The notes beneath the pieces were generated by a model. It had not been told where the DNA came from. It worked only from the letters and a program-made list of their open reading frames with translations, and did not search any database. The position numbers and the translations under genes were made by a program. This document shows, in pieces, positions 12,413-54,141 of a stretch of 64,000 bases of DNA (position 1 is the first letter of the stretch; each line of letters opens with the position of its first letter). The stretch is from Patescibacteria group bacterium (GTDB lineage Bacteria > Patescibacteriota > Patescibacteriia > UBA9570): contig JBAYIY010000006.1 in assembly GCA_041665365.1 (NCBI GenBank), positions 19,602 to 83,601 on the forward strand. The letters are read 5' to 3'.

Positions 12413-13630
12413 TTATTCAGTTTTAGTTGATTCAATTTTTTCTACTTCTTTCTCTTCTTTTTTTTCAGCGTCTTCAGCTCGAATGATATCAATCGACCAA
12501 CCGGTTAAGCGGGAAGCTAACCGGACATTCTGACCACCCTTACCAATCGCTAAGGAGAATTGATCTTCTGGAACTTCAGCGGTGGCAATTTTTTTACCGT
12601 CTACTTCTTTCAATGAAACACTAGTAATTTTAGCTGGAGATAATGCATTGATAATAAACTTAACAGCATCGTCATCATAATGAATGATATCAATTTTTTC
12701 ACCACCAAGTTCTGTAATCACAGTTTGTACGCGGGTACCACGTTGACCAACACATGAACCAATTGGATCAATACTTGGGTCGGTTGCGGCCACGGCAATT
12801 TTGGTACGCGAACCGGCTTCACGGGCAATCGCTTTAACCACCACACTGCCGGAACCAATTTCCGGCACTTCAGCAGCAAACAAAGCCGATACTAAATTAG
12901 CATTGGAGCGTGAGGCAATAATTTCAGGCCCACGGTGCGTTTTTTCGATTGATAGTAATAATACTTTTATGCGTTGACCGGGTTTATATACTTCACTGCG
13001 CACCTGTTCGGCTGGAGGCATAACCGCCACGGCTTGACCCAGATCAACAAAAACCACTTTACCTTCCACCCGTTGAATCATAACGTTGATCACTTCGCCC
13101 ACACGATCTTGATACAACTTGAAGAGTGTTTCCCGTTCGGCTTCACGCAATTTTTGAATAATCACTTGTTTGGCTGTTTGTGCGGCCATTCGACCAAATT
13201 CAGCCGGCACTTCTACTTCATCACGAATTTCATCACCTAATTCAATATCAGCAATTTCCTCTTTCGCTTGGGTATAAGGAATATCTGTTTTAGGATTAAA
13301 GCGTTTTACCGGTTCACCTTTGTCATCTAACGCTGGAGCACTTTCTACTAAACCAGTCGTAGCGTCTTTATCTTTTTGATATTGCTCATATAAAGCATCT
13401 TCCACTACAGTGGTCACTTCAAATATACGCATCGAGCCATCATTAGGGTTAAATTCCACGCGAATGTCTTTTCCCTTCTGGCCCATCTCTTTACGGTAAG
13501 CTACCGCTAAAGCGGTTTCAATTGTTTCTACCACGGCTTCAAACGGAATGCCTTTTTCTTCGCAAATCTGTTTGATGGCCGCACCGACTTCTTTTGGATC
13601 TGGCATAAATATAGAATTGGTTAGAGACAT
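12413..13630 (-). CDS. nusA: Transcription termination/antitermination factor NusA
   Basis: 405 aa; N-terminal domain, S1 and two KH domains. Start codon lies inside a family-A palindrome. Confidence 0.9.
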   Translation of the reverse strand: MSLTNSIFMPDPKEVGAAIKQICEEKGIPFEAVVETIETALAVAYRKEMGQKGKDIRVEFNPNDGSMRIFEVTTVVEDALYEQYQKDKDATTGLVESAPALDDKGEPVKRFNPKTDIPYTQAKEEIADIELGDEIRDEVEVPAEFGRMAAQTAKQVIIQKLREAERETLFKLYQDRVGEVINVMIQRVEGKVVFVDLGQAVAVMPPAEQVRSEVYKPGQRIKVLLLSIEKTHRGPEIIASRSNANLVSALFAAEVPEIGSGSVVVKAIAREAGSRTKIAVAATDPSIDPIGSCVGQRGTRVQTVITELGGEKIDIIHYDDDAVKFIINALSPAKITSVSLKEVDGKKIATAEVPEDQFSLAIGKGGQNVRLASRLTGWSIDIIRAEDAEKKEEKEVEKIESTKTE

Positions 13631-13644
13631 GCCATGGCATGTCT
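13625..13644. repeat. Family-A palindrome, partial copy (agacatgccatggcatgtct) overlapping the nusA start codon
   Basis: 20 bp perfect palindrome identical to the core of copies at 19469, 20783, 53613 and 54114. Confidence 0.7.
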
Positions 13645-13711
13645 TATAAATAAAAAAAGTAGTATTTTTAATACTACTTCACATTAGTCTGTAAAGAGTA
13701 TGGCGGATGGG

Positions 13712-14077
13712 TTAGTTCTTGTCAATACTAGGAAGAAACATAATGTTTTGCCCGATGATACCGATGGCACCAATCGCTAAACCAGTATAGGTTAGGTGAT
13801 GATCTGTCACGTAGGTTAAGCCTAGTCGCCGCAGCATACAGCGTTTACGTCGACCAATCGCATGAAATGGGTGCCCATAGCGCCAACCCGATCTAGTTTT
13901 GACTTCAAAAAAATATATCACCGTATCTTTTTTAGCGATAATATCAATCTCTCCACTGCGCCTGCTCCAGTTTCGTTCCAAAATGGTATAACCTAGTTTT
14001 AGTAGGTATTCGGTCGCTTGGTTTTCACCGGTTTTCCCAGTTTCATGTCTAGCATACATAAAAAACGCTTCCCACAC
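13712..14077 (-). CDS. yraN: YraN family (UPF0102) endonuclease-like protein
   Basis: GE..A..YL...GY.IL.RNW....GEIDIIA...FFEVKTR pattern. Confidence 0.6.
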   Translation of the reverse strand: MWEAFFMYARHETGKTGENQATEYLLKLGYTILERNWSRRSGEIDIIAKKDTVIYFFEVKTRSGWRYGHPFHAIGRRKRCMLRRLGLTYVTDHHLTYTGLAIGAIGIIGQNIMFLPSIDKN

Positions 14078-14113
14078 ACAATAGGCAGCGCTTGTCCGAG
14101 CATGGTAGCACGC

Positions 14114-14662
14114 TTACTTCACGAACACAAGTCCCCAGTGGTATGGTCCGGCGTTAAATTCAGCGGTTAATTGCATGTGTAGATCTTCGGCTATTTTTTT
14201 CACCTCCTCTGGATGTACGCGCATGTCATTAACTGGCCCCAGTGGCGCTGTGACATCTGGTTTCCAATCAACCACAATCAGTTTTCCACCTGGTCGAACC
14301 ATGCGATGACATTCTTGAACCATTTTCGCGCGTTGTTTAGATTGAAACAGAACTGTTACCATAAAACCGACCATCAAGCTGTTATCCCGAATCGCTTTAG
14401 TAGCACCATAGATTTCTAAATCACTCCACACCGTTTGCACATTATTCAAACCATGCATTTTGGCTTTATTTTGTACGGCCGGCAAAATAGTTTTAACCAC
14501 ATCAACTGCATAAACGATACCATTTTTGCCCACTTGCGCCGCCGCTGGCAAAGCGAGCTTGGCCTCACGCCCAGTACCAAAATCGGCCACATAATCACCC
14601 AATTTTAATTGGGCATGATACAAAATTGTTTTTACATCAATCATCGGACTATTCATTTGCAT
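14114..14662 (-). CDS. Class I SAM-dependent methyltransferase
   Basis: VADFGTGRE (motif I) and RMVRPGGKLIVVDW (motif post-II) pattern. Confidence 0.5.
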   Translation of the reverse strand: MQMNSPMIDVKTILYHAQLKLGDYVADFGTGREAKLALPAAAQVGKNGIVYAVDVVKTILPAVQNKAKMHGLNNVQTVWSDLEIYGATKAIRDNSLMVGFMVTVLFQSKQRAKMVQECHRMVRPGGKLIVVDWKPDVTAPLGPVNDMRVHPEEVKKIAEDLHMQLTAEFNAGPYHWGLVFVK

Positions 14663-14665
14663 GGC

Positions 14666-15238
14666 TTAAGTATAAAGCAGCTTGTGAATCGGAGCAAATG
14701 ATTTTCTATGATAGGGGCTAATTCCATATTTTTTTAATTGTTGTTGGTGTAAAGCTGTACCGTACCCTTTATGTTGGCCAAACATGTATTTACCATCAAC
14801 TGTATCAAGATAGTGCATTAAAGTATCTCGCACCACTTTGGCCACAATCGAGGCGGCACCAATTGTATAATTAGTTGCATCACCATGAATAATTTTCTTG
14901 ATTGGTAAATAATGATGCAAGACAAAACCGTCTACTAAAATAAGCTCTGGCGCTGGATCAAGGTGGGTAATGCAGTAAGATAGAGCAAACATATTGGCTT
15001 GATGCACACCCAACTGATCAATATCCGTTTGCGGCACAGACACAACCACACAGCTAATGGCCGTCGAGACTATTTTTGGAAATAATTTGATTCTTTGTTG
15101 GTGTGATAACTGCTTAGAATCAGCCACACCGGTAATTCGTTTTCCTTGTGGCATAATAATGGCACAAGCCACTAATGGCCCAGCCCAGGCACCTCGCCCG
15201 ACTTCATCAACCCCGGCAATTAGATGATAACTTTCCTT
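14666..15238 (-). CDS. rnhB: Ribonuclease HII
   Basis: GVDEVGRGAWAGPLVACAII motif. The ORF-track 5' extension to 15355 is probably spurious. Confidence 0.85.
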   Translation of the reverse strand, partial: KESYHLIAGVDEVGRGAWAGPLVACAIIMPQGKRITGVADSKQLSHQQRIKLFPKIVSTAISCVVVSVPQTDIDQLGVHQANMFALSYCITHLDPAPELILVDGFVLHHYLPIKKIIHGDATNYTIGAASIVAKVVRDTLMHYLDTVDGKYMFGQHKGYGTALHQQQLKKYGISPYHRKSFAPIHKLLYT

Positions 15239-15298
15239 CATCTTTTTAGTATACACCCATGCCCTGTTACTTGACCTGAAAAAATAGTATGATAACAT

Positions 15299-16135
15299 GT
15301 GACACCTATGGCGAAACGAATTGGTAAGGATCGACTCACTATCACCATGCGACAAGATGTCTTAGCTGCGCTTGATAGCTTCATTAATGGTGATACCATT
15401 CGTAATCGTTCTCAAGCCATCGAACATATCGTTGCCCGTCATCTTGGCACTGGCATTGATACTTGTGTGATTTTAGCCAGTGGCCGTGAAGATCAATCGA
15501 TCAAATGTTTAAAACGCGTGCAAAATCGGCCTGTGATTGCCTATACCATTGAGATGTTGCGTCTGGCTAACATTCACAACATCATTATGGTAATAAATAA
15601 GAAATGTCCGGATATAAAACAATATTTGGGTAACGGTTTACAATACAGAGTTAATATTCAATATATTGAAGAAGACAATCCGACTGGCACGGCACAATCG
15701 TTGCAGAAGGTAAAAGGTCTGATCGATAAAACATTTTTATTGTTATATGGTGATGTACTGGCCGATATAGATATTCAGGAATTGGTTAGATTTCATCATG
15801 ACATGGATCATATTATAATGACCCTAGCCGTGACCGCCGCCACTAATCCATCTTTGTATGGTGTGGCCGAACTACAAGGTAAACGAATTTATCGCTTAAT
15901 CGAAAAACCAACTCAACTAAAAAAGAGTAATCTCGTCGTCGCTGGTGTGGCTGTGTGTGAACCTGAACTGTTTAAAGAAATACCAGAGCATTGTGAAAAT
16001 AAATATTTAGCCCGAGACATCCTCCCAGATTTAGCCCACCGTGGACAAATTGGCGGTTATCCTTTTTCCAACAAATGGTTTGATGTGTCCCATGAGGATG
16101 AATACACCCGCGCGCAAGCGGAGTGGGTGGAATAA
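15299..16135 (+). CDS. Ribbon-helix-helix (CopG-like) domain fused to a sugar-phosphate nucleotidyltransferase domain
   Basis: N-terminus RLTITMRQDVLAALDSFI... resembles an RHH domain. The rest (ILASGREDQ..., NPTGTAQSL, LLLYGDVLADIDIQ) resembles the NTP_transferase fold. Confidence 0.55.
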   Translation: MTPMAKRIGKDRLTITMRQDVLAALDSFINGDTIRNRSQAIEHIVARHLGTGIDTCVILASGREDQSIKCLKRVQNRPVIAYTIEMLRLANIHNIIMVINKKCPDIKQYLGNGLQYRVNIQYIEEDNPTGTAQSLQKVKGLIDKTFLLLYGDVLADIDIQELVRFHHDMDHIIMTLAVTAATNPSLYGVAELQGKRIYRLIEKPTQLKKSNLVVAGVAVCEPELFKEIPEHCENKYLARDILPDLAHRGQIGGYPFSNKWFDVSHEDEYTRAQAEWVE

Positions 16136-16683
16136 AACATTTTTTTTGGATTGTTATAAATATATTGCCGGGTATAATCCAATTGCCGTGGTGTGCGAAT
16201 AATTTCATCGTAATACCGGGGTTGCCAATGGAAATATTGATCCGGTTGTTTTTTTCGAATATAAAACGTGGTGACACCTTTATACCATCGAATTATATGC
16301 GGTAACGATGTGGGATGTAACATTGGATTATTTTGTTTTGTCACCCCACCGGTTTGATGAAACCCTCTGGTAGAGACGCGATTAATCGCGTCTCTACCAG
16401 AGGGTTTCATGTACACAATCCCATGCATGTGATCCGGCATGATCACAAACGCATCCAATTGCATATGTGGAAAATGTTCCGGAATGTTTAACCAATATTG
16501 ATGGGCTGTTTCACCAATATCCGATAAACACATATAACCGTTTTTAATAAAACCAAATGGGTTTTTGTATCGCTGTTTTACGCAAATCGTAATAAAATAC
16601 CACCCCGGTGTGGCATAATTCCAACCGGTTAATCGAATTGATGGTGTAAAATACCGTTGCCTATATAACATAAAACGCCCCAT
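16057..16683 (-). CDS. IS200/IS605-like HuH-Y1 transposase (REP-associated tyrosine transposase, RAYT-like), copy 1, with in-frame palindrome insert
   Basis: YFITICV...FVIMPDHMHGIV (HuH motif) and RQYIYNNP (catalytic Tyr region). A 52 bp perfect palindrome at 16358..16409 is translated in-frame as GRDAINRVSTRGF. The C-terminal tail probably reads into the convergent gene. Confidence 0.65.
   Translation of the reverse strand: MGRFMLYRQRYFTPSIRLTGWNYATPGWYFITICVKQRYKNPFGFIKNGYMCLSDIGETAHQYWLNIPEHFPHMQLDAFVIMPDHMHGIVYMKPSGRDAINRVSTRGFHQTGGVTKQNNPMLHPTSLPHIIRWYKGVTTFYIRKKQPDQYFHWQPRYYDEIIRTPRQLDYTRQYIYNNPKKMFYSTHSACARVYSSSWDTSNHLLEKG
16358..16409. repeat. Family-A palindrome variant (TGAAACCCTCTGGTAGAGACGCGATT|AATCGCGTCTCTACCAGAGGGTTTCA), 52 bp perfect
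   Basis: Read directly; inside RAYT copy 1. Confidence 0.9.
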
Positions 16684-16773
16684 AAGGCGGCGCTTTTCAT
16701 GAACAGGTTATCACAAATAATTGGTTTACACAATGTTTGATATATAACGTAAACAATCAACCTGGTATATGAC

Positions 16774-16831
16774 GTCGACAATCATCCGGTAGAGACGCGA
16801 TTAATCGCGTCTCTACCGGATGATTGTCGAC
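16774..16831. repeat. Family-A palindrome variant, 58 bp perfect (GTCGACAATCATCCGGTAGAGACGCGATTAATCGCGTCTCTACCGGATGATTGTCGAC)
   Basis: Read directly. Followed by direct repeat ccggatgattgt. Lies at the left edge of the GC-rich island. Confidence 0.9.
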
Positions 16832-17105
16832 CGGATGATTGTTCATTTTAACGGGTGATTTTACGATTCCCCCATTCAGGTGTGACAATCCACCTGGACA
16901 ACCAAAACCAATCCCTGTACAAATGGTGGGTCTTGTTCTTTTTATCGTGGTACACCCGCATTTTTATTGATCACAATTACTGATGTGAGGTGAGTTTGGT
17001 GATGAGTGAAAGTGAGGGTGTACCCAAAAAGTTCCCCCTGCACGGTCCAGTGGGATCGTGTTTTCGTGTACAAAGAAAATCAACCTGAACAAGAAGGAAT
17101 GACAA

Positions 17106-18560
17106 GTGGCCCCCAACAACCTCCCCGTGTACGACAACGGGGATATCTTGAAGTTGACCGTCGCGGTCGACCCGAACATCGTTCGGGCTGACATGCCGGC
17201 GGTGAATCGCACGTCTGCGGAACTCAAGAACCTGGGCACGATCGTCCAGGACGCCCTGATCGAAGAGGGCAAGGAACTGGTGCAGGCCGGAATCGGCGAT
17301 GCCAACACGGAGTACACGCTCCGTGATTTGGCTGAGGCCATCAACTCGGCGGCACACCGGGATGTGCTGCCAATCTCTGGCCTCGTCACGCCGGACGCAC
17401 CGGCGTTCCACCTCGAGTACGGCGATGTTCGGGGTATCCACGCCCTGATCACTGTGCTCAAAAACTTCCTCGGCGTCCTCCTCGGCATCGAGGTTCGCGA
17501 CTACGTGACGATCACCCACGGTGGGCGCTCGGCGGTCTTTATGGCCGTCCGTTCATTCACGCAGTTCATGGTCGCTACCCTGAAGTCGATGGGCGTCGAG
17601 GGACCGCCAATGGTGGCGGTTCCAGTGGAAACCTGGGGAACCTACCCCAACATCGTCGCCCAGGCGCTGGGCGACGGGGTATTCCACCCGATCCCCTGCA
17701 GAGACGGCCTGCTCGACGCCGAAGCACTCGACGAAGCGTGCACGCGCAACCCGCGCATTCGCATGCTCATCTTCTGCAATCCGGTGAATCCGAGCGGCCG
17801 GACGTATGGATCCGATCGCATGGCGCGGATCGCCAGGATCGTGGCCAAACACAAGTTGTGCGTCCACGCCGATGACATGTACGCGATGTTTGCGTGGGTT
17901 CACCCCCATCGCAGCATCCTGCGCGCTGCCGCGGCGCTGGCGCACTCGGGTGAAAAGGAGGTTGGAGAGTGGGTCGCATCCCACACCACCCTCCTCACGG
18001 GTGTCATGAAGGCCGGGGGCTCGGGTTCCCGTGTGAACTTCATGGTCATCCCGAACGACAATCTGCGGGCTCGCTTCGTCGCGAACCAGGGCGACCTGTA
18101 CGGTCCGCCGAACATGATGGGGCAGCTGTTGCAGCTCGCCTTCATCAAGCACGGTGGGCCGGAGCGCGTCTGGCTCGAGATGAAGGAGCGGCGTGATGCC
18201 CTCCAGGCCAAGCTGACCGAGGTCGCCGGACGTATCACCGGCTGCCCGATCACCCTGACCTGGAGTGCTATGGAAGGCGGTTTCTACACCGCCATGCACC
18301 TCAACGGCATCGGTGGAATGAAGTACACCGATCGCAGCGGTACCTCCCGGGTCATCATGACGGGCGAGGATATGGCTCGGTTCCTCGTCCAGCGGGCTGG
18401 CATCGTCGCCACGCCCGATGTCGCGGCGTGCGTCGGTGACGTCACCTTCGCGCGCATCGCGTATGGCATGATGCGTCCGGAGACCGTCGAGGTTTTCGGC
18501 AACCAGTTGGCAGACGCCGTGATCGGGCTGTGCGCCGAAAACGGCCACAACCCGAAGTAG
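17106..18560 (+). CDS. PLP-dependent aminotransferase (class I/II fold) on a GC-rich, foreign-looking island
   Basis: 484 aa, GTG start with AGGA 8 nt upstream. NPSG, ADDMY and a VMKAGGSGSRVNF (SxSK..G.R.G-like) lysine motif. Codons are strongly GC3-biased, unlike the rest of the window. Confidence 0.6.
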   Translation: MAPNNLPVYDNGDILKLTVAVDPNIVRADMPAVNRTSAELKNLGTIVQDALIEEGKELVQAGIGDANTEYTLRDLAEAINSAAHRDVLPISGLVTPDAPAFHLEYGDVRGIHALITVLKNFLGVLLGIEVRDYVTITHGGRSAVFMAVRSFTQFMVATLKSMGVEGPPMVAVPVETWGTYPNIVAQALGDGVFHPIPCRDGLLDAEALDEACTRNPRIRMLIFCNPVNPSGRTYGSDRMARIARIVAKHKLCVHADDMYAMFAWVHPHRSILRAAAALAHSGEKEVGEWVASHTTLLTGVMKAGGSGSRVNFMVIPNDNLRARFVANQGDLYGPPNMMGQLLQLAFIKHGGPERVWLEMKERRDALQAKLTEVAGRITGCPITLTWSAMEGGFYTAMHLNGIGGMKYTDRSGTSRVIMTGEDMARFLVQRAGIVATPDVAACVGDVTFARIAYGMMRPETVEVFGNQLADAVIGLCAENGHNPK

Positions 18561-18792
18561 CTTCCCTAGGTTCGCCGTTGAGGTAAAAGGTGGGAAGTAC
18601 GCTCTCCCCCTGGTCACGCGCACTTGACCGCGCGAAAGTGACCACCCCAACGGCGGCCTTTGGGGAAGAACAAGACAACGAGGAGAACAAGTGTGTGTGC
18701 TATATCCAGCGGGACGTAGCACACCGAATGTTCTCCTCCCTTCAGCAATCTGTATCAATTTATTGGTACAGATTGATTAGGGAAAAAATATA

Positions 18793-18837
18793 AAAACCCG
18801 GTAGAGACGTTGTATGCAACGTCTCTACCGGGTTTTT
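18793..18837. repeat. Family-A palindrome variant (AAAAACCCGGTAGAGACGTTG-tatg-CAACGTCTCTACCGGGTTTTT)
   Basis: Read directly: 20 bp arms with a 4 nt loop. Confidence 0.85.
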
Positions 18838-18855
18838 GTGATTATTATGTGTATG

Positions 18856-18903
18856 GTCGGGGGTGAGCGCATGATGTGTGGCGCTCAAACCCCCGAACCT
18901 GTG
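18856..18903. repeat. GC-rich roughly 48 bp hairpin-forming direct repeat, copy 1
   Basis: ggtcgggggtgagcgcatgatgtgtggcgctcaaacccccgaacctgt; second copy at 19174. Confidence 0.6.
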
Positions 18904-19173
18904 TGTGATCAATATCGCTGTGATTTCGGGATCCCGTGATCTAGAACCTCGTATGACCCCCTCTCTGCAGGGGCCACTTCCTGTTGTTCCGGCAATCTCC
19001 GATAAGCGAATCCAAGAAACTCCCCATCCCAATCCCAGGGGTCAGACTCTTGATCTGAGCCGTTTTTTTCACTTTCGTTTTCAGGTTTCTTTTCAGGCAC
19101 ACAGCCTCCTTTGGCTGAGCCATATTAGTTTATAATCATAAAAAAAACAAACACCTTTGTAGGTGTTGTGATG

Positions 19174-19222
19174 TCGGCCAGGGGTGAGCGCATGCTATCT
19201 GCGCTCGAACCCCCGGCCTGTT
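19174..19222. repeat. GC-rich roughly 48 bp hairpin-forming direct repeat, copy 2
   Basis: gtcggccaggggtgagcgcatgctatctgcgctcgaacccccggcctgt. Confidence 0.6.
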
Positions 19223-19468
19223 GCTCAGCAGTAGCACGGTTCGTCGGACGTAGTCCAACGAGGTTTCACGATTTTTTCCCCGTTTTCGGCGGGAGTTTTT
19301 GCCAGCTGAATCGCCGGCTCAGTCTCCAGCCTCAGTGGGGTTTTCTCGATCTTTTTGTCGTTTTCTTTCGCCACATGTCCTCCTATGAGCTGGGGTATCG
19401 TAATAAAAAATATCATCATGTCAAACCAAAAAAGTATGATGAATGCCAAAATAATAACAATGTGTACA

Positions 19469-19514
19469 TTAAAAACAGTAGAGACATGCCATGGCATGTC
19501 TCTACTGTTTTTAA
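19469..19514. repeat. Family-A palindrome, 46 bp perfect (TTAAAAACAGTAGAGACATGCC|ATGGCATGTCTCTACTGTTTTTAA)
   Basis: Read directly. At the right edge of the GC-rich island. Confidence 0.9.
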
Positions 19515-19529
19515 TTGGGGAAGGTATGT

Positions 19530-20774
19530 CTACCCGTTGGCAATCCCCTTGGCTAACATCGCTTGTTCGATGCGTTTGGCGGCATGAATGTAGGCCGCAG
19601 TACGCATTTCACAGTTATATTTTTCTTTAATCGCCCAAATGGCATTGAACGAATCAACCATAATTGGTTCCAATTTGGCTAACACTTCTTTTTCTGACCA
19701 ATAATAATTGTAGGCATTTTGTACCTGTTCAAAGTAAGATACTGTGACACCACCGGCATTAGACAAAATATCGGGTACTAAAATGATGCCTTTCTTGGCT
19801 AAAATTTCATCGGCTTCAGGAGTGGTTGGACCATTGGCTAATTCCACAATGGCTTTACATTTCAATTGGCCAGCATTTTCTGCCAAGATTTGATTCTCCA
19901 AAGCGGCTGGTACCAAAATATCACAGGCCGTAGTTAACACTTGGGCATTGGTGACATTTTTGGCACCGGGGAAATTTTGCACACCGCCAGTTTTGGCTTT
20001 GTGTTTTTCTACAGCCACTGGGTCTAATCCTTTTTCGTTAACAATACCACCGCGGGAATCTGACAAACCAACAATCTTATAACCTTGTTTGGTTAAAATC
20101 TTCGCCATGTAAGAACCGGCATTGCCGAAACCCTGAATCACCACTGTGGAGCCTTTCTTAAATTTCATTTTTTTGGCTAGCTCTAACATGACATACACAC
20201 CCCCTTGCGCGGTAGAATAACCACGACCTGCAGAACCACCAACAGCAATTGGTTTACCAGTAATCACACCGGGCATTTGGTGACCATGTAGAGTATTAAA
20301 TTCATCAAGCATCCAAGCCATAATCTGTGGTGTGGTATACACATCTGGCGCTGGCACATCAATATCTGGACCAAGATCACCACGTAAGCCACGAATAAAG
20401 CCACGGGATAATCTTTCTAATTCACGCACCGATAATTCTTTTGGATTAACCGTCACACCACCCTTACCACCACCTAATGGAATACCGACCGTCGCACACT
20501 TAAAAGTCATCCAGAAAGCTAAGGCTTTTACTTCATTGATATCGGTATCTTGATGAAAGCGAATGCCACCTTTGTTAGGACCACGGGAATTATCATACTG
20601 TACGCGATAGCCTTCATAAACCTTAATATCGCCATTGTCCATCCGAATTGGAATAGAAAAATGAATTTCGCGCTTGGGTTGTTTCAAACGAGCATGCACA
20701 CTGGCATCCAACCCCATTAGTGTAGCGGCTTTATCGAGTTGTTTCTGCGCCGATTGAAACGGATTAACTTTCAT
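19530..20774 (-). CDS. gdhA: Glutamate dehydrogenase (NAD(P)+)
   Basis: 414 aa; KGGIRFH and GGGKGG motifs, C-terminal Rossmann GFGNAG. Confidence 0.9.
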   Translation of the reverse strand: MKVNPFQSAQKQLDKAATLMGLDASVHARLKQPKREIHFSIPIRMDNGDIKVYEGYRVQYDNSRGPNKGGIRFHQDTDINEVKALAFWMTFKCATVGIPLGGGKGGVTVNPKELSVRELERLSRGFIRGLRGDLGPDIDVPAPDVYTTPQIMAWMLDEFNTLHGHQMPGVITGKPIAVGGSAGRGYSTAQGGVYVMLELAKKMKFKKGSTVVIQGFGNAGSYMAKILTKQGYKIVGLSDSRGGIVNEKGLDPVAVEKHKAKTGGVQNFPGAKNVTNAQVLTTACDILVPAALENQILAENAGQLKCKAIVELANGPTTPEADEILAKKGIILVPDILSNAGGVTVSYFEQVQNAYNYYWSEKEVLAKLEPIMVDSFNAIWAIKEKYNCEMRTAAYIHAAKRIEQAMLAKGIANG

Positions 20775-20782
20775 AGATATTT

Positions 20783-20811
20783 GTTACAGACATGCCATGG
20801 CATGTCTTTAC
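20783..20811. repeat. Family-A palindrome, one-mismatch copy (GTTACAGACATGCCATGGCATGTCTTTAC)
   Basis: Between the aminotransferase stop and the gdh start; likely terminator hairpin. Confidence 0.8.
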
Positions 20812-20837
20812 TAATTAAAGACGCGCCTATTATATGC

Positions 20838-22031
20838 CTAGCTATTATATTCTGCAAGGGCTAATTTTATTAGTTCTAATGATCTCTTTAAAGCAGTAGT
20901 GTTTAACATGAAAGCTAACCGCACTTCTTTTTTACCTTTACCCGGAGTAGCGTAAAAACCAGCGGCTGGTGCTAATAGAACAGTTTCATTATGATCCTGG
21001 AATTCATTAATCATCCAAGCGGCAAAGTTATCGGCATCATCAATCGGTAAACCAATAATGATATAAAAAGCTCCTTCTGGTTTGGAAAAAGTGATGTTAG
21101 GAATCTTTTTTAAACCTTGGTACACCACCTCACGTCGCTTTCTAAATTCTTTAGTCATGATGCTGGTGTATTTTTTTGGATTCTGTAATAACGGTATTAA
21201 AGCCAGTTGTTCAATCGAGGCGACTGATAATCTAGCCATGCCCATTTTTAACACAGCGGCAATTACCGCTTTGTTTTTTGAAGCGACTGTCCCGACCCGC
21301 GCCCCGCACACATTAAATCGTTTTGACGCACTATCTAACACCACGGCTTGTTGCTGAATCTCTTTAAACTCCATGATCGAATAACATTTAGATTCAAAGG
21401 CAAACTCACGATAAACTTCATCCGATAAAATAAATAAACCATGCTGCTTAGCTAACTTAACTAAGCGACCTAATTCTTGTTTTGAAAAAATTGTTCCAGT
21501 CGGATTAGATGGATTACAAATCAAAATGGCTTTAGTTTTTTTAGTAATGACTTTTTTTATCTCTGCATCGGTTGGTAAGTGAAAGCCGTTTTTGATATCC
21601 AAAGTAACTGGTTTTAATGTCACATTAGCCAGCGCGGCAAAACTATTATAGTTAGTATAAAATGGTTCAAATACTATTACTTCATCACCCGGATCACAGA
21701 CTGCTTCTAAGGCAAAAATGATACCTTCTGATCCACCGGATGTAATAATAATATCTTCCGGTTCAAATGGGATATGATTCTTTTTATAATACACACTCCA
21801 GGCTTCTAAGGCTGGTTGTAAACCATTCGATGGCGCATAAGACAAAGTCGGCTCAGAGTATTGTTTGATCGCTTTAAACACATCCGGATGAGTGGGTAAA
21901 TCCGGTTGACCAATATTTAAGTGATAAACTTTGATTCCTTTTTTCTTGCGCGCCTCAGCGGCGGCGGCTAGTTTACGTAAAGGTGACGCTTGTAAGTTTG
22001 TACCACGTGTCGAAATATTTGGAATACTCAT
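20838..22031 (-). CDS. Class I/II PLP-dependent aminotransferase (aspartate/aromatic aminotransferase-like)
   Basis: 397 aa; SASKRFNVCGARVG (SxSK..G.R.G) motif. AT-rich codon usage, so native. Confidence 0.8.
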   Translation of the reverse strand: MSIPNISTRGTNLQASPLRKLAAAAEARKKKGIKVYHLNIGQPDLPTHPDVFKAIKQYSEPTLSYAPSNGLQPALEAWSVYYKKNHIPFEPEDIIITSGGSEGIIFALEAVCDPGDEVIVFEPFYTNYNSFAALANVTLKPVTLDIKNGFHLPTDAEIKKVITKKTKAILICNPSNPTGTIFSKQELGRLVKLAKQHGLFILSDEVYREFAFESKCYSIMEFKEIQQQAVVLDSASKRFNVCGARVGTVASKNKAVIAAVLKMGMARLSVASIEQLALIPLLQNPKKYTSIMTKEFRKRREVVYQGLKKIPNITFSKPEGAFYIIIGLPIDDADNFAAWMINEFQDHNETVLLAPAAGFYATPGKGKKEVRLAFMLNTTALKRSLELIKLALAEYNS

Positions 22032-22037
22032 ATTTTT

Positions 22038-23027
22038 TTATGATCTTATAAAATGTTCATTTGATGATACTTTCCAATCTTGATTAACTGACACATTCTT
22101 CCCATCTTTTGTACCTAAATATGTGTAACACGCCAAGGCGGCTTTACATCCTTCACCGGCGGATACTACTACTTGTTTACAATTACTCGTCGTCACATCT
22201 CCAGCCGCAAAAATTCCAGTTTTTGAAGTTCGACAATCTGCCGTCACAATCACTTCATGTTTTTCACTCATATCTACCAACCCATCCAAAAAATTAGTCT
22301 TAGACATAAACCCAGCGTTAATACACACTGCATCTACCACAATAGTCCGCTCAGCTTTCCCTTCTTGTTGTACAACTATGCCGGTAACATTATTTTCACC
22401 AGCAATTTGTTTTAATTGGGCATTCAATACTTGGGTGACATTTTTACATTGCGCCATGGTTTCTAACAAAACAGCTTCAGCGCGAAATTTATCCCGACGA
22501 TGAACCAAATACACTTGCTTAGCTACAGCGGCTAATACATTCACTGATTCAATGGCAGAGTTACCACCGCCAATCACCGCGACAGTTTTTCCACGTAATG
22601 TATCGACTACAGCGGCAGCACTATAAGTTACACCTTTACCAACTAGTTCCGCCTCACCCGGTACATTCAAACTACGCGGTGTTAAACCAAAGGCTAAAAT
22701 AATACTGCGTGTTTCTATTTGTTCAGTATTGTAATCTACAATAAATTTATCCTCAGCTTGTTGTGTAATTTTGTGTACTTCCCCTAACTTAAATTCTGCA
22801 CCAGATGAAACTGCTTGATCACGAAACTTTTTCATTAACTCAAAGCCATCAATGGCACCAACCCCAGGATAATTTTCTATCACCGATGTGGTGGCGGCTT
22901 GCCCACCTAGATCTTTGGAAATTATGACAGTACTTAAATTACGCCGCGCGGTATACAAAGCGGCGGTGAGCCCTGCTGGACCACCGCCGATTATTACTAC
23001 ATCATACTGTTTATCAGATGAGGCCAT
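22038..23027 (-). CDS. Thioredoxin-reductase-like FAD/NAD(P)-binding oxidoreductase lacking the CxxC redox disulfide (ferredoxin-NADP reductase type 2 / YumC-like)
   Basis: DVVIIGGGPAGLTAALY and GKTVAVIGGGNSAIE motifs. The position of CATC is replaced by AAAV (GVTYSAAAVVD). Confidence 0.65.
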   Translation of the reverse strand: MASSDKQYDVVIIGGGPAGLTAALYTARRNLSTVIISKDLGGQAATTSVIENYPGVGAIDGFELMKKFRDQAVSSGAEFKLGEVHKITQQAEDKFIVDYNTEQIETRSIILAFGLTPRSLNVPGEAELVGKGVTYSAAAVVDTLRGKTVAVIGGGNSAIESVNVLAAVAKQVYLVHRRDKFRAEAVLLETMAQCKNVTQVLNAQLKQIAGENNVTGIVVQQEGKAERTIVVDAVCINAGFMSKTNFLDGLVDMSEKHEVIVTADCRTSKTGIFAAGDVTTSNCKQVVVSAGEGCKAALACYTYLGTKDGKNVSVNQDWKVSSNEHFIRS

Positions 23028-23949: not shown

Positions 23950-23985
23950 TTATTTGTAATAGATATATTGAATCAATCATCGTGT

Positions 23986-24040
23986 CCATGTGTTCCATGC
24001 AGTGGACGAATAATATTCGTCCACTGCATGGAACACATGG
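23986..24040. repeat. Family-B palindrome, 55 bp perfect (CCATGTGTTCCATGCAGTGGACGAATA-A-TATTCGTCCACTGCATGGAACACATGG)
   Basis: Read directly. Immediately upstream of RAYT copy 2. Confidence 0.9.
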
Positions 24041-24115
24041 TTACACACATGCATCCACACAATTTTATCAAACATACGTTACCATATCCCCCATTATTGT
24101 TCCACGTGGAACAAT

Positions 24116-24750: not shown

Positions 24751-24806
24751 CTTTGTGGATTTATTCACCGAAGCTCACTGACGCCGAAGGCTAAGGTGAA
24801 CGAAGG

Positions 24807-24879
24807 TGGACCTGAGCGGACTCGAACCGCTTACCTCAGCAATGCGAATGCTGCGCTCTACCAGATGAGCTACAGGCCC
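24807..24879 (-). tRNA. tRNA-Ala (CGC)
   Basis: Reverse complement gggcctgtagctcatctggtagagcgcagcattCGCattgctg...ggttcgagtcc...caggtcca; G3:U70 pair present. Confidence 0.75.
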
Positions 24880-24885
24880 AAATAA

Positions 24886-24959: not shown

Positions 24960-24960
24960 T

Positions 24961-25030: not shown

Positions 25031-25109
25031 GGCCCCTACAAAAAGGATCATTTATCTAAACCTTGAGGACTATATACCAACTTACTAAAAAGATCAAATG
25101 TACTGCCTG

Positions 25110-25789: not shown

Positions 25790-25794
25790 GAATT

Positions 25795-43573: not shown

Positions 43574-44740
43574 ATGGACATATTATTAGAAAGAGGCGTT
43601 GATACAATTTACCCATCACTAAAAAAACTCAAAGAAAAACTGGCCACTGGCGATAAACTTACCCTATATTTAGGAGTGGATCCAACCGGGGCATTATTAC
43701 ACATCGGTCATACAATACCTTTACGAAAACTAGCTCAATTTCAACAGGCGGGGCACAAAGTGATTTTATTAATGGGCGACTTTACGGCCGTTATTGGGGA
43801 TCCGACTGGGAAAGATAAAACCCGTGTTCCTCTAACATCAGGGCAGATTTTAAAAAATGCCGAAACCTATAAAGAGCAAGCCAGTAAAATTTTAGATTTT
43901 AATCACCCAATCAATCCAGTTGAAATTCGTTATAACAGTACCTGGTTGGCCAAACTTACTTTCACTGAGGTTATAAAACTGGCCGCACATTTTACCGTGC
44001 AACAAATGTTAGAACGAGACATGTTTGAACGGCGCATTAAACATGGGCAGCCCATTTCACTGCATGAGTTTTTGTATCCTTTGATGCAGGGTTATGATTC
44101 TGTGGCGATGGATGTTGATTTAGAAGTTGGTGGGACAGATCAAACGTTTAATATGTTGGCCGGAAGAACTTTACAACGCGAAATCAATCAACGGGAAAAA
44201 TTTGTTATCACCGTGCCGTTATTGGCTGATGCCAATGGAGTAAAAATCGGCAAGTCAGAAGGTAATGTGATTGCCATTACGGCTAAACCGGCCGATTTAT
44301 ATGGCAAAATTATGGCTTTAGGTGACGATGTAGTAGAACAGTGTTTTGAATTATGCACCGATCTACCCATGACTGAAATTAAACAAATTGTTCAAGGCAA
44401 TCCGAAACAAGCCAAGATGAGATTAGCTCGTGAAATTGTTACTATTTATCATTCAGCTGAAGCCGCGGCGCAAGCTGAACAGGAATTTAACACAGTGTTT
44501 TCCAAACACGGTAAACCGAGTGACATACCAAACAAATTAATTCCAAACACTACTGAGCCACCGGCGATACTTGTGGAACTAGCTCTGGCCGAAAATAAAT
44601 CTGCGGCGAAACGATTATTTGAACAAGGGGGAGTAAAAATAAATGATCAAAAAATAACCGATTGGAAAAAACCGTTAGTGTTAAAATCCGGCGATGTGAT
44701 TCAAGTTGGAAAAAGAAATTTTATCGCAGTGTACGAATAA
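43574..44740 (+). CDS. tyrS: Tyrosine--tRNA ligase
   Basis: HIGH (LHIGHTIPL) and KMSKS-like (KIGKSEG) motifs, C-terminal S4 domain. Last five codons and the stop lie in a family-B palindrome. Confidence 0.9.
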   Translation: MDILLERGVDTIYPSLKKLKEKLATGDKLTLYLGVDPTGALLHIGHTIPLRKLAQFQQAGHKVILLMGDFTAVIGDPTGKDKTRVPLTSGQILKNAETYKEQASKILDFNHPINPVEIRYNSTWLAKLTFTEVIKLAAHFTVQQMLERDMFERRIKHGQPISLHEFLYPLMQGYDSVAMDVDLEVGGTDQTFNMLAGRTLQREINQREKFVITVPLLADANGVKIGKSEGNVIAITAKPADLYGKIMALGDDVVEQCFELCTDLPMTEIKQIVQGNPKQAKMRLAREIVTIYHSAEAAAQAEQEFNTVFSKHGKPSDIPNKLIPNTTEPPAILVELALAENKSAAKRLFEQGGVKINDQKITDWKKPLVLKSGDVIQVGKRNFIAVYE

Positions 44741-44757
44741 TATTCGTACACTGCGAT
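44723..44757. repeat. Family-B palindrome, short copy (ATCGCAGTGTACGAATA-A-TATTCGTACACTGCGAT)
   Basis: Between convergent tyrS and galT; supplies the tyrS stop codon. Confidence 0.85.
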
Positions 44758-46168: not shown

Positions 46169-46172
46169 AAAA

Positions 46173-51137: not shown

Positions 51138-52650
51138 GCTTGGTCCAAGCGCAGTCTTAGGGTTAACCATTGGGCTGTTTATTTGGTATCAATCGATTCA
51201 GACTTTTCCTGACCCCGATGCGTATTATCATGCCAGACTTGCGGCTATCATGCTGCAATCTGGTCTGCCCACCACATTTCCCTGGCTGCCATTAACAACC
51301 TTATATCAACATTTTGCTGATCACCATTTACTGTATCATGTAGCCTTAATGCCCGCTGTGGCATTATTTGGTCCAATTATTGGGGTTAAATTAATGCAAG
51401 TTATATTTGCTAGTTTAGTGATAATTATTTGTTATTTTATTTTGCGCCGGTGGCATATTCCATACCAAGCCCCAGCTCTTTTGCTGTTACTTAGTAGTTA
51501 TCCCTTTCTAGTAAGGATTAATTTAGTAAAAGCTTCCGCCGTGGCGATTTGTTTATTTTTATTGATTCTATATTTTTTATTGCAAAAACGGTATGGGTTA
51601 GTAGGCATTCTAACACTAATTTACACGCTAACTCACGGTGGATTTATTTTAGCAGTGGTTTTAGCGACTGCCGTTTGGTCGGCCGACAGTATCGCCCAAA
51701 TATTTAAAGCAAAACAATATAAACCTATCTTACCAACGGGAATATTTGTTGTGTGGGCAGCCATCATTATTGGAATATTAATCAACCCATCGTTTCCAAA
51801 TAATCTGGCTTTTTTGTGGGCGCAAGTATTTCAGATTGGGGTGGTTAATTATCAGTCGGTGATCTCAGTTGGGGCGGAATGGTACCCATTTCCACTAACC
51901 GAATTAGTCGAAGCGATTAGTGTATTATTAATCGGTGTAGTGGCCACCATTCCAGTGTGGCTGAGGCAGTGGCGTAAAGTGTTAAGTGATGAAAAAGCGG
52001 TGTCTTTATTATTACTCACCCCAGTTTTTTTTATTTTAACTTTACGCTCACGCCGGTTTGTTGAATATTTTATCCCATTACTGTGGTTGTTGATTTGTTT
52101 ATTAGTGCTACCGGCTTGGCAGGCGGGCATTATTCAACCGGTTTGGCAAAGCATCACGCGCCGGCTTGGGCACTGGGCGAAGCTATTAAATATGTACATC
52201 GTAGTCACAACTATTGGTACAATCGTGATTGGTGTAATCGGGATCGGACGCAGTTTTTATCAAGCAAAACCAATTGATCGGTTTGCCCAAGCCGGTGCTT
52301 ATTTACAAAGTGTAGCCGAACCAAATGAAATAGTATTTCATGGGCGGTGGGATGACTTTCCGGCGCTATTTTATTATGCACCGAAAGCGTCATACATGGC
52401 TGGGCTTGATCCAACTTTCCTGTATTTAGCTGATAAAAATTTATATCAACACTGGAATGATATTGCCACGGGCAGGGCTAAACAACAAACGGCTAGTAAC
52501 ATCCGTGATTATTTTCAAGTGCGCTATGTTGTGGTAGATGAATCTGATTCACATACGCAATTAATGTTAGCTTATTTGTTGCGTGATAAAACCGCCAAGC
52601 TAGTTTTTCATCAGAAACCAATGGCAATTTTTAAATTAGTTGAATTATGA
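51121..52650 (+). CDS. Polytopic membrane protein, GT-C-fold glycosyltransferase-like (paralog 1)
   Basis: About 12 TM helices with a C-terminal soluble domain. First extracytoplasmic loop FPDPDAYYH (DxD-like). Shares blocks (RINLVKA, THGGFIL, FPNNL, AEWYPF, DDFPAL, GLDPTFLYLA) with the next gene. Confidence 0.4.
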   Translation: MRWLNKLGPSAVLGLTIGLFIWYQSIQTFPDPDAYYHARLAAIMLQSGLPTTFPWLPLTTLYQHFADHHLLYHVALMPAVALFGPIIGVKLMQVIFASLVIIICYFILRRWHIPYQAPALLLLLSSYPFLVRINLVKASAVAICLFLLILYFLLQKRYGLVGILTLIYTLTHGGFILAVVLATAVWSADSIAQIFKAKQYKPILPTGIFVVWAAIIIGILINPSFPNNLAFLWAQVFQIGVVNYQSVISVGAEWYPFPLTELVEAISVLLIGVVATIPVWLRQWRKVLSDEKAVSLLLLTPVFFILTLRSRRFVEYFIPLLWLLICLLVLPAWQAGIIQPVWQSITRRLGHWAKLLNMYIVVTTIGTIVIGVIGIGRSFYQAKPIDRFAQAGAYLQSVAEPNEIVFHGRWDDFPALFYYAPKASYMAGLDPTFLYLADKNLYQHWNDIATGRAKQQTASNIRDYFQVRYVVVDESDSHTQLMLAYLLRDKTAKLVFHQKPMAIFKLVEL

Positions 52651-54077
52651 AATGGTATGTGTGGCTGAGCATTGTGCTGCTGGCACTTGGTTTGTGCAGC
52701 TTACAAGGCACAGTTGTTTTTCCTGATCCAGATGCGTTTTACCATGTTGGCGTGGCCCAACATTTATGGGAGTTTGGCTTTGCTAAAACATTTTCCGGAT
52801 TGCAACCCACTACTTTAGGGCAACACTTTGTCGATCAGCATTTCTTATTACATTTTACCCTAGCACCATTTGTGTGGATGATGAGCCCTGGAGTTGGCAC
52901 CAAAGTATATATGGTAGTTGTAGTATTAGTCTGTTTAAGTGTCATGTCTTACATGCTATATTGGATCAAAGCACAGACTTGGTGGGTTGGAGTTATGCTT
53001 TTGGTAGCAACTAACGCCTGGTTATTTCGTATAAATTTAGTAAAGGCCACGCCGTTGGCTTTGATTTTGTTATTTTTATCACTGCTAGCTTTACAAACAA
53101 AAAAATATAAATGGTTACTGCTAATAGGTGGTCTCTATGTCTGGACACACGGTGGGTTTATTTTATTGCCCATTCTAGTTGGAGTTTGGAGCCTGTTAGC
53201 CAAACAATGGAAACCGGTCGCGTATGTATTATGTGGAATCAGTGTGGCTATTTTAGTCCACCCAGCCTTTCCAAATAATCTATTATTTTATTGGGAACAA
53301 CTTGTTCAAATCGGCGCAGTTAATTATCAAACTGTGATTGGGGTAGGAGGAGAGTGGTATCCCTATGAACCCGGTTCATTAGTATTTGGTCATACTATAA
53401 TTTTTTCCATTCTAATAATTAGTCTTGTCCTGCATGTCTTACAAAGACGTCCGTTTACTGTGGCGCAAATATGTTTTTCTATTTACACCGTAATATTTTT
53501 CATTCTCACATTAAAATCCAAAAGATACGTGGAATATTTTTCACCCATGTTAGCCTGCACAGCGGCATTGTATGTGCCAACGGTGATAAAATCAAAAGTA
53601 GAGACACACAATAAAGTAGAGACACGCCATGGCATGTCTCTACTTTTGATTCCCACGGCAATTATGATTGTTGTCCTGGTACCGGTTGTAATTCAAGAAA
53701 TTATTACCGCAAAAACTGATTTGCAATCTGGCCAAGCGTTAACCTATTTACATGGAGCCGGAGAATTTTTAGATACTTTACCACCAGGGCAAGTCGTTGC
53801 CCCCAGTGATTGGGATGATTTTCCAGCTCTGTGGCGAGCCGCACCACACCAACAATTTTTAATTGGATTAGATCCGACTTTTCTATATCTGGCTAATCCT
53901 ACTCGTTATGAAGCTTGGCGCGCCCTCACCTTAGGTGAAGACAATGATGTTGATACAGTAGGGGCAGATTATTATGTGGTAGCCAAAGACCATAAATCTA
54001 TGCATAAACATTTGGTAAAAATTGATGCCGTGACGGTTTATGAAGACGATGAGGCTTGGGTGTTAACAACCCCATAA
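52647..54077 (+). CDS. Polytopic membrane protein, GT-C-fold glycosyltransferase-like (paralog 2), with in-frame palindrome-encoded insert
   Basis: Same conserved blocks as paralog 1. Residues KSKVETHNKVETRHGMSLLLIP are encoded by a family-A palindrome at 53594..53648. Confidence 0.4.
   Translation: MKWYVWLSIVLLALGLCSLQGTVVFPDPDAFYHVGVAQHLWEFGFAKTFSGLQPTTLGQHFVDQHFLLHFTLAPFVWMMSPGVGTKVYMVVVVLVCLSVMSYMLYWIKAQTWWVGVMLLVATNAWLFRINLVKATPLALILLFLSLLALQTKKYKWLLLIGGLYVWTHGGFILLPILVGVWSLLAKQWKPVAYVLCGISVAILVHPAFPNNLLFYWEQLVQIGAVNYQTVIGVGGEWYPYEPGSLVFGHTIIFSILIISLVLHVLQRRPFTVAQICFSIYTVIFFILTLKSKRYVEYFSPMLACTAALYVPTVIKSKVETHNKVETRHGMSLLLIPTAIMIVVLVPVVIQEIITAKTDLQSGQALTYLHGAGEFLDTLPPGQVVAPSDWDDFPALWRAAPHQQFLIGLDPTFLYLANPTRYEAWRALTLGEDNDVDTVGADYYVVAKDHKSMHKHLVKIDAVTVYEDDEAWVLTTP
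53594..53648. repeat. Family-A palindrome (one mismatch) with partial tandem duplication, inserted in-frame in a CDS
   Basis: aaagtagagacaca + aaagtagagacacgccatggcatgtctctacttt. Confidence 0.85.
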
Positions 54078-54080
54078 AAA

Positions 54081-54111
54081 ATAACACCCGGTTTCATACT
54101 GGGTGTTATTT
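54081..54111 (+). terminator. Hairpin (aataacaccc-loop-gggtgttatt) after the membrane-protein pair
   Basis: 10 bp perfect stem directly after the stop codon, followed by T-rich sequence. Confidence 0.5.
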
Positions 54112-54113
54112 TG

Positions 54114-54141
54114 TAGAGACATGCCATGGCATGTCTCTACT
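54114..54141. repeat. Family-A palindrome, 28 bp perfect core (GTAGAGACATGCCATGGCATGTCTCTAC)
   Basis: Read directly; between convergent genes. Confidence 0.9.

Follow-up and report, generated by a model that had tools for sequence, protein, structure and literature searches.

The 64,000-nucleotide (nt) stretch of the Patescibacteria group bacterium contig JBAYIY010000006.1 analyzed here (the window) carries two genes for REP-associated tyrosine transposases (RAYTs) and two families of long palindromes, called REPs (repetitive extragenic palindromes) below. RAYT1 (16057–16683, minus strand) encodes a Y1 HuH transposase of the TnpA_REP subclass 2.4 type, with the motifs PDHMHG, WQ (as HWQ), and YIYNNP. 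RAYT2 (24182–24748, plus strand) is a second RAYT of this type, with PNHIHG, WQ (as SWQ), and YIHNNP, and its motifs (NHIH, WQ, and YIHNNP) fit subclass 2.4 fully. The two are paralogues with 40% identity and different hairpins. They score 30.4 and 34.1 bits against Pfam PF01797 (cut-off 23), and the best NCBIfam match of both is REP_Tyr_transpos (NF047646) with 46.2 and 60.7 bits; since these scores are under the 80-bit equivalog cut-off, we place both in the broader RAYT superfamily only, and not in that equivalog. NCBIfam transpos_IS200 reaches just 20–22 bits against a cut-off of 55, and the best match in the PDB is the Escherichia coli TnpA_REP (4ER8), with marginal similarity (E = 0.002).

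RAYT1 differs from its relatives in several respects. Its HuH motif, DHMH, is a variant of the NH[IFV]H of the subclass, and DH recurs in several homologues of a protein alignment (A1) of RAYT1, RAYT2, and 36 homologues, which were gathered via shared 5-residue words and are as such biased toward the peptide RDAINRVST. RAYT1 is also without the conserved Trp after NNP, and its tail (MFYSTHSACARV...) stands where homologues have a conserved W..D tail, so its C-terminus has been remodeled. At its 3′ end, the gene overlaps the convergent nucleoside triphosphate (NTP)-transferase gene (15299–16135) by 79 nt (16057–16135).

The census of repeats covered the window and ~12 kb more of the same contig (~76 kb in total), with the chance expectation taken from 100 dinucleotide-preserving shuffles searched for the pattern GTAGAGAC-N(8–16)-GTCTCTAC. 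The first family (A) gives six exact matches to GTAGAGAC-N12-GTCTCTAC (16370, 16789, 18801, 19478, 53616, and 54113), always with a spacer of 12 although 8–16 were allowed, and none is found in the shuffles (0/100). Likewise, the 8-mer arm occurs 14 times, compared with 0.63 expected. These exact matches bear out the dispersed hairpin-repeat family of mobile type that had been proposed from the letters alone, before any database search (the sequence-only reading). That reading counted at least eight copies sharing the arm, of which six are indeed full; those at 13625 and 20783 have decayed feet, however, and the one at 53594 is a half-arm of the copy at 53616. Overall, family A thus consists of six full copies, one half-arm, and two decayed remnants. 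Six of the eight copies and remnants lie within ~4 kb of RAYT1, and the further ~12 kb of contig outside the window holds no REP. A lone GTCTCTAC at 30132, in clpP, has no partner arm and was judged a chance match. Rfam 15 at the gathering score finds only tRNAs in the whole window and no REP match; at a permissive E-value, its hits in 16700–19600 around the REPs are only sub-threshold look-alikes of microRNA hairpins.

All six full copies have the feet GTAG...CTAC, and in several of them perfect palindromy outruns the 28-nt core. The copy inside RAYT1 spans 16357–16410 as a 54-nt perfect palindrome, in which the core (16370–16397; GTAGAGAC GCGATTAATCGC GTCTCTAC) is framed by 13-nt mirrored flanks; its folding energy is −31.4 kcal/mol (z −13.6). 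A further copy (16774–16842), 91 nt upstream of the RAYT1 start, contains a 58-nt perfect palindrome (16774–16831) around the core 16789–16816 and reaches −35.4 kcal/mol. At 18792–18837, on the right edge of a high-GC island, lies a 46-nt perfect palindrome with a 4-nt loop, having the center GTTG-tatg-CAAC and the flanks AAAAACCCG/CGGGTTTTT, and 15 nt past the gdh stop a 48-nt perfect palindrome (19468–19515) has the center ATGCCATGGCAT and the flanks ATTAAAAACA/TGTTTTTAAT. These four copies substantiate the claim that several are perfect over 46–58 bp. The copy at 53590–53651, in a membrane-protein gene (52647–54077), has its core at 53616–53643, mirrored flanks AATCAAAA/TTTTGATT, and an extra half-arm GTAGAGACA at 53598–53606; its center is ACGCCATGGCAT, with one mismatch, and the centers listed in the sequence-only reading need amending to this extent. 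The sixth copy (54113–54140) is a core only, with no flank extension; the genes on its two sides are convergent, and a separate terminator hairpin (54075–54115) is its neighbor.

Two remnants complete the family. One (13620–13649, inner palindrome 13625–13644) overlaps the ATG with which the longest nusA open reading frame (ORF) begins, and the other (20783–20812, inner palindrome 20788–20807) lies between gdh and an aminotransferase gene (20838–22031). Both retain just the inner 20 nt, AGACATGCCATGGCATGTCT, while their GTAG/CTAC feet have decayed, with at least three mismatches. The center GCGATTAATCGC is common to both copies associated with RAYT1, whereas the dispersed copies carry other centers, most commonly ATGCCATGGCAT. 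Folded as single-stranded DNA, the REP elements reach −12.2 to −35.4 kcal/mol (z −6 to −13.6), and no shuffled sequence is as stable.

A second family (B), absent from the sequence-only reading, has the core GTGGACGAATA-A-TATTCGTCCAC, which is found exactly at 24002 and 24467 and with two mismatches at 44729 (0 expected). Specifically, one copy lies 142 nt upstream of RAYT2 (23986–24040, core 24002–24024) with 16-nt mirrored flanks, another in the RAYT2 linker (24450–24506, core 24467–24489) as a 57-nt perfect palindrome, and the variant GTGTACGAATAATATTCGTACAC at 44723–44757 (core 44729–44751) with 6-nt mirrored flanks. The feet are GTGG...CCAC in the first two and GTGT...ACAC in the third. 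Both RAYTs carry, at one and the same place in the linker, a palindrome from a family of their own, which recurs a short way upstream of the gene: RAYT1 pairs with family A, and RAYT2 with family B.

Some smaller palindromes lie close to these copies. Upstream of RAYT2, a 20-nt zero-loop palindrome (24096–24115; ATTGTTCCAC|GTGGAACAAT) resembles the right and left arms of family B joined tail-to-head, with 8/10 matches to each arm, and abuts a promoter-like TTGACA-17-TACATT (24116–24144); an operator, or the relic of a junction, would both be conceivable. The stem GTAGTA...TACTAC is shared by two GTAG-footed hairpins (13657–13679 and 57409–57437), which could represent a third, minor REP-like family, or chance. 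The former has a T-run after it on the minus strand and is the probable terminator of a UPF0102/YraN-like gene.

To place the RAYT-internal hairpins, we retrieved the loci of RAYT homologues using flanking motifs only (MP[ND]H[IVM]HGI and ...RWYKG) and kept the 80 best of 586 confirmed relatives in genome contigs, from more than 12 phyla. Of these 80 loci, 77 had a HuH motif that we could place. Counting as REP-like any palindrome with a perfect stem of at least 8 pairs situated 26–113 nt 3′ of the HuH motif's first base, we find one in approximately three quarters of the 77, GTAG-footed where intact. In 32 loci a GT[AG]G foot lies within the perfect stem, read in frame 0 in 22 cases and in frame 1 in 10. 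For example, the center GCGATTAATCGC yields RDAINRVST or ETRLIASL according to frame, GTTGCATGCAAC yields RDVACNVST or VETLHATSL, and GTAGGGGCGCAGCATGCTGCGCCCCTAC yields VGAQHAAPL. One DNA hairpin is hence read in different frames, which means that the conserved thing is the DNA hairpin and not the peptide. In A1, where the linker after HuH is otherwise highly variable, RDAINRVST (the translation of AGAGACGCGATTAATCGCGTCTCTAC) is nearly invariant, including in homologues named from Patescibacteria, Cyanobacteria, Bacteroidota, Omnitrophota, and Calditrichota.

The type of hairpin tracks the protein subfamily: the ...IIRWYK, ...ISPKPGSLSTIIRSYK, and ...SLGAVIRSFK subfamilies each have a different one. 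The core beginning GTAGAGAC recurs in cyanobacterial, Bacteroidota, and other genomes, and the 28-nt core of family A is present in hundreds of unrelated genomes and metagenome contigs; on five metagenome contigs, the RAYT linker contains an in-frame REP with the ATGCCATGGCAT center (VETCHGMS). RAYT1 had been taken for the target of an insertion, but the same segment stands at the same position in homologues of many phyla and, by the refuting condition set in the sequence-only reading itself, is native to the gene family. Judged from these homologues, then, the linker hairpin is a conserved DNA feature of the family and not a recent arrival in RAYT1, even if the literature still terms such copies insertions. 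A literature search for the peptide RDAINRVST returned no paper.

Other arrangements were seen among the homologues. In Calothrix sp. NIES-4105 (L008, 10610–11477), eight identical GTAGAGACGCGATTAATCGCGTCTCTAC REPs stand directly 3′ of the RAYT homologue at a spacing of 118–121 nt, mostly 120–121, and form a tandem REP array. The linkers of RAYT homologues also often hold runs of partial, decayed REP-encoded peptide, such as RDAINRDAIGRDAIGRDAIGRDAINRVST or repeated ETRLIAS (A1 rows P0010, P0038, P0053, and P0042 and loci L015 and L037), which points to half-hairpins repeatedly duplicated locally inside the gene.

The reading frames of the cores explain much of how coding copies are tolerated. 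The family A core is stop-free in two of three frames on both strands (VETCHGMSL and RDMPWHVS), with TAG in the third, and that of family B has two open frames and TAA in the third. Open-frame copies are those in RAYT1, where minus-strand translation of the REP gives MKPSGRDAINRVSTRGFH, and in the membrane protein, where it is read IKSKVETHNKVETRHGMSLLLI; the in-frame translations reported earlier, GRDAINRVSTRGF for RAYT1 and KVETRHGMSLL for the membrane protein, are correct. The third-frame outcome is seen twice. Specifically, the stop codon of the tyrosyl-tRNA synthetase (TyrRS) gene (43574–44740) is the central TAA of the family B variant (44738–44740), and the REP inside RAYT2 is read NERIGGVDE-stop-YSSTPPIRS, with an in-frame TAA at 24476–24478 that comes from the REP center and interrupts the gene, so that RAYT2 is probably a pseudogene. 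With two frames open by composition, and with third-frame stops occurring, selection for in-frame insertion, which the sequence-only reading had considered, is superfluous beyond the loss of disruptive copies. Nor is an in-frame hairpin unusual, as had been supposed, since such copies were published in 2013 and 2018 (PMC3733652, PMC6006769).

The REP-encoded residues of the membrane protein belong to a variable loop that is flanked by hydrophobic segments. Its nearest homologues (51–55% identity, Kerfeldbacteria-like) have a loop of equal length there whose residues are unrelated, and on this comparison the peptide is lineage-specific. Regarding nusA, it had been suggested that the gene takes its start codon from the palindrome. 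This is doubtful: just the longest ORF starts there (ATG 13630), and solved NusA N-termini align to its residues 7–11, which makes the second ATG (13606) a better fit than the REP-derived one.

The proposed terminator role may hold for part of the family. Some copies are situated where convergent genes meet or at 3′ gene ends, and the copy at 18792–18837 scores as a terminator on both strands; 19468–19515 and 54113–54140 have TGTTTTT tails after zero-loop stems, a type that the terminator scan leaves unscored. By contrast, the coding copies have no T-tract tail, nor do most copies overall. A related Patescibacteria contig (L200), with 85% DNA identity to the window in gdh and 75% in the aminotransferase gene, has no REP and carries an ordinary hairpin terminator where 19468–19515 sits in the window; the intergenic DNA is too diverged for an empty-site comparison of this copy and shows a different hairpin at the terminator position. 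It is plausible that some intergenic copies act as terminators or RNA stabilizers.

A further property of the copies is that their flanks mirror each other past the feet. In family A this mirroring extends over 13, 15, 9, 10, and 0 nt, and over ~8 nt at 53590–53651 (outer half-arm), and in family B over 16 and 17 nt, and 6 nt in the variant at 44723–44757. Eight of the nine full copies are thus extended, by 6–17 nt. The outer arms differ in every copy, are not repeated elsewhere in the 76 kb or in the retrieved loci, and lose their complementarity abruptly. They have no GT[AG]G feet, which rules out nested REPs. As controls, we used 143 double-foot REPs, 70 from 80 genome loci and 73 from 80 metagenome loci. 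Among the genome controls 39 are without extension and 6 reach at least 4 nt, while in the metagenome set 50 are without extension and 9 reach at least 4 nt (maximum 12). Pooled, this amounts to 15/143 (~10%) with at least 4 nt, compared with ~0.4% by chance. REPs of this kind thus show flank mirroring in general, at low frequency, and it is very frequent in this genome. We found no description of such copy-specific perfect extension, and it looks new. The idea that template switching perfects inverted repeats is established (Lavi et al. 2018, PMC5941160).

One copy records more than a mirrored flank. The order at 16774–16842 is L (GTCGACAATCATCCG), core, the reverse complement of L, and CGGATGATTGTTCAT, and the first 11 nt of CGGATGATTGTTCAT are the reverse complement of L's inner 11 nt—i.e. 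16832–16842 is an 11-nt direct repeat (CGGATGATTGT) of the start of this REP's right arm. Two successive flank-copying insertions, one per side, would produce this layout.

Taken together, we consider it highly probable that the palindromes are double-foot REPs, the cognate hairpins of subclass 2.4 RAYT/TnpA_REP proteins, and that the window holds two such systems whose copies were subsequently extended by flank mirroring. By analogy with E. coli TnpA_REP and IS200/IS605, the palindrome would fold on single-stranded DNA at the replication fork; the RAYT would recognize the GT[AG]G foot and the lower stem, nick the strand, and rejoin it, and the hairpin would occasionally be copied to new sites, mostly nearby. 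After genes, copies would serve as terminators or RNA-stabilizing stems, or replace them. Within coding DNA, their survival would be confined to loops or linkers and to the two frames free of stops, the third ending the protein. A second process, which would have to be unusually active in this lineage, may then extend the palindrome outward by turning one flank into the reverse complement of its partner. The model we prefer here, at lower confidence, is that the foot is nicked and the snapped-back 3′ end primes synthesis along its own 5′ flank; an equivalent replication template switch is the alternative. The expected outcome would be perfect palindromes of 35–58 bp (46–58 bp in the longest copies). 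We would put forward only tentatively the wider idea that hairpins grow by repeated flank mirroring while the RAYT-linker copy serves as a heritable master, traveling between phyla with the gene.

Several points weigh against this interpretation. We infer mobility from dispersal, from presence and absence between relatives, and from analogy, and ~76 kb of the genome is covered. An active enzyme in the window is doubtful given the DHMH motif and altered tail of RAYT1 and the stop in RAYT2. The ATGCCATGGCAT center of the dispersed copies differs from the GCGATTAATCGC associated with RAYT1, and the enzyme that mobilizes the ATGCCATGGCAT copies may lie elsewhere in the genome or have been lost. 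No REP lies downstream of either RAYT in the window, which leaves the REPtron arrangement incomplete. For the copy in the membrane-protein gene, homologues of no more than 55% identity give no base-level empty site and make insertion and replacement indistinguishable. As for the extension, the direct-repeat signature of flank-copying insertion is found at one locus only among 23 extended copies. In RAYT1, moreover, 13 or 26 added nt would break the frame, a difficulty for the insertion form of the model, so replacement of one flank is favored there over pure insertion; template switching in register may achieve this replacement in coding DNA.

Other explanations account for parts of the same evidence. 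Dispersal, in-frame translation, and a membrane-protein peptide not found in homologues would all be expected of a free mobile hairpin that recently hit RAYT1, the membrane-protein gene, and the nusA start and was selected for in-frame insertion, and copies inside RAYT genes are termed insertions in the literature too (PMC6006769). We nonetheless hold this to be unlikely, as the RAYT-internal copy is family-wide and occupies one linker position across phyla, the two frames are open by base composition with the third-frame stop seen twice, and the second ATG is the better candidate for the nusA start. The near-invariance of RDAINRVST in A1 could instead suggest a functional protein motif, of which the palindrome would be a by-product and the dispersed copies RAYT gene fragments. 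That alignment, however, was gathered via 5-residue words and is biased to the motif, whereas homologues found by their flanks read another frame (ETRLIASL, VETLHATSL) or have another center or stem (VGAQHAAPL); the dispersed copies have no RAYT sequence past the palindrome, and published modeling puts the region in a peripheral loop (PMC6006769). We regard a protein motif as extremely improbable. It is very unlikely, too, that these are immobile terminators or operators that evolved in place and resemble each other through a shared binding protein. Several copies do follow genes, with that at 18792–18837 terminator-like on both strands and that at 19468–19515 in terminator position, but the 28-nt core lies inside three coding regions, most copies are without a T-tract, the core occurs in hundreds of unrelated genomes and metagenome contigs, and it is linked to RAYT genes.

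The long outer arms raise the question of which came first. REPs within palindromic "targets" have been described (PMC3733652), and the outer arms at 18792 and 19468 are terminator-like pairs of A-tracts and T-tracts, as would be the case if REPs inserted into the center of existing palindromes or hairpin loops. By contrast, the arms are unique to each copy and without GT[AG]G feet, two of the pairs lie in linkers of different RAYTs, and A/T-only arms would form no hairpin without the REP. In addition, the 64 kb hold a single REP-free zero-loop palindrome of at least 20 nt (24096–24115), and the direct repeat at 16832–16842 suits copying better. Pre-existing arms are accordingly an unlikely origin. 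That the long perfect palindromes are assembly or amplification artifacts is scarcely credible. Palindromes do confuse de Bruijn assemblers, and Logan k = 31 contigs (SRR6484324; L086 and L203) break at palindrome centers near 16802, 18825, and 19486, which is also what genuine long palindromes would bring about. However, a European Nucleotide Archive (ENA) contig (L201) is identical to the window over 13530–26774, through every REP there, and a Joint Genome Institute (JGI) contig (L202) is identical over 17720–26774, which takes in the REPs from 18792 to 24506 and excludes both RAYT1-associated copies. The palindromes also have unique sequence on both sides, and a graph artifact would not give arms of 6–17 nt that join unique DNA.

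The surroundings of the two systems have features of their own. The window has a base composition of 40–43% G+C, with the exception of a single island of 60–67% G+C (17050–18750) that adjoins RAYT1 and lies between the REPs at 16789 and 18801. Its gene (17106–18560) encodes a pyridoxal phosphate (PLP) aminotransferase of a very rare family, of which a set of 5.8 billion proteins contains 12 close homologues; one of these sits in a polyketide synthase/nonribosomal peptide synthetase (PKS/NRPS) cluster of 66% G+C. The same aminotransferase gene adjoins gdh in the related contig L200, and as such the island is an inherited horizontal acquisition and no chimera; a chimeric assembly is ruled out by this gene order together with the agreeing JGI assembly. 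Between the island and gdh are two GC-rich hairpins of ~45 nt (18855–18900 and 19176–19220) with the pattern GGxCxGGGGTGAGCGC...GCGCTCxAACCCCCGxxCC and compensating differences. Their minus-strand folding gives z −5 to −6, and they have no Rfam match.

Many genes in the window are for type IV secretion system (T4SS) pilins of the Patescibacteria type. For example, at least 10 small genes with T4SS-pilin domains (PF18895) are densely clustered on both strands at 54149–59889. The small hairpin (A)CCCTTCCTACAATAGGAAGGG(T) occurs twice in this cluster (57539–57561 and 58062–58082), and a similar one, CCCCTTTCCTGTATAGGAAAGGGG, is the gdh terminator in contig L200 (~2050–2080). Hairpins of this type may form a lineage-typical terminator family.

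These results have consequences for annotation and assembly. Peptides such as RDAINRVST, VETRHGMSL, and ETRLIASL should be annotated as translated hairpins and not as protein motifs, and start or stop codons that fall in REPs call for caution. Perfect palindromes of 46–58 bp fragment short-k assemblies at their centers and could hide loci in short-k data. In-gene double-foot RAYT/REP systems evidently also occur in the very small genomes of Patescibacteria, and two distinct systems can lie 8 kb apart. Palindrome growth, if true, would help to reveal how HuH enzymes or replication act on hairpins in vivo, and how long perfect palindromes can last in a genome, which may lack the usual hairpin nucleases. 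If hairpin growth and a master copy in the linker both hold, a mobile hairpin would have a new means of remodeling neighboring DNA, coding DNA included.

Compared with known systems, the REPs and TnpA_REP of E. coli (4ER8; Ton-Hoang 2012 and Messing 2012, as cited in PMC6006769) share the Y1 HuH transposase, the hairpin with a GTAG foot, and the presumed single-strand nick-and-rejoin chemistry. As presented there, the E. coli REPs differ in having a single unpaired GTAG foot, imperfect GC-rich stems, a position outside the gene, and a subclass 2.2 enzyme. The REPIN-RAYT system of Pseudomonas (Bertels and Rainey 2011, PMC3116915) is similar in that it consists of nonautonomous, RAYT-tied repeats with long hairpin units; it differs in that a REPIN is made of two inverted REPs and a spacer, has a sequence common to all copies, and goes with a single-copy group 2 or 3 RAYT. 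The copies described here have a single core and outer arms that are unique to each, unlike a REPIN, and they also differ from IS200/IS605 elements, as each RAYT has different hairpins and no IS (insertion sequence) ends are found. Rickettsia palindromic elements are ~100–150 bp long and not GTAG-footed, and we know of no RAYT associated with them. They are alike, as far as they are cited in PMC3733652, in being palindromic repeats tolerated in frame in coding genes. Quasi-palindrome correction (PMC5941160) is likewise a replication process that perfects inverted repeats and is a candidate for the flank mirroring, but it mends mismatches in existing repeats and does not make a mobile hairpin grow outward.

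The closest description is that of TnpA_REP subclass 2.4 (Quentin, Siguier, Chandler, and Fichant 2018, PMC6006769), which equals group 4 of Bertels. That work gives as motifs of the subclass the HuH NH[IFV]H, WQ, YIxNNP, and a variable insertion between beta3 and alphaC after HuH, describes its REPs as "long" and "double foot" (5′ GT[AG]G, 3′ C[TC]AC), reports REPs inserted inside tnpA_REP with the reading frame undisturbed, and models the linker region as a peripheral loop. GTAG REPs within ORFs, and REP ends that supply stop codons, had been reported before (Di Nocera et al. 2013, PMC3733652), and group 4 RAYTs are known to be common in Cyanobacteria, Chlorobia, and Caldilineae (Bertels et al. 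2017, PMC5581495). A literature search linking RAYT or REP to Patescibacteria found nothing specific. The systems in the window share with those of subclass 2.4 the feet, the palindrome of ~28 nt, WQ and YIxNNP, the variable linker, and the spread over many phyla. They differ in the DHMH of RAYT1, in having no downstream REP here, in the copy-specific extensions of 6–17 nt, in their Patescibacteria host (CPR, the candidate phyla radiation), and in the distance of no more than 8 kb between two systems. As such, our finding is a rediscovery of a described kind of system, in a host phylum for which we found no report and with two systems adjacent to each other.

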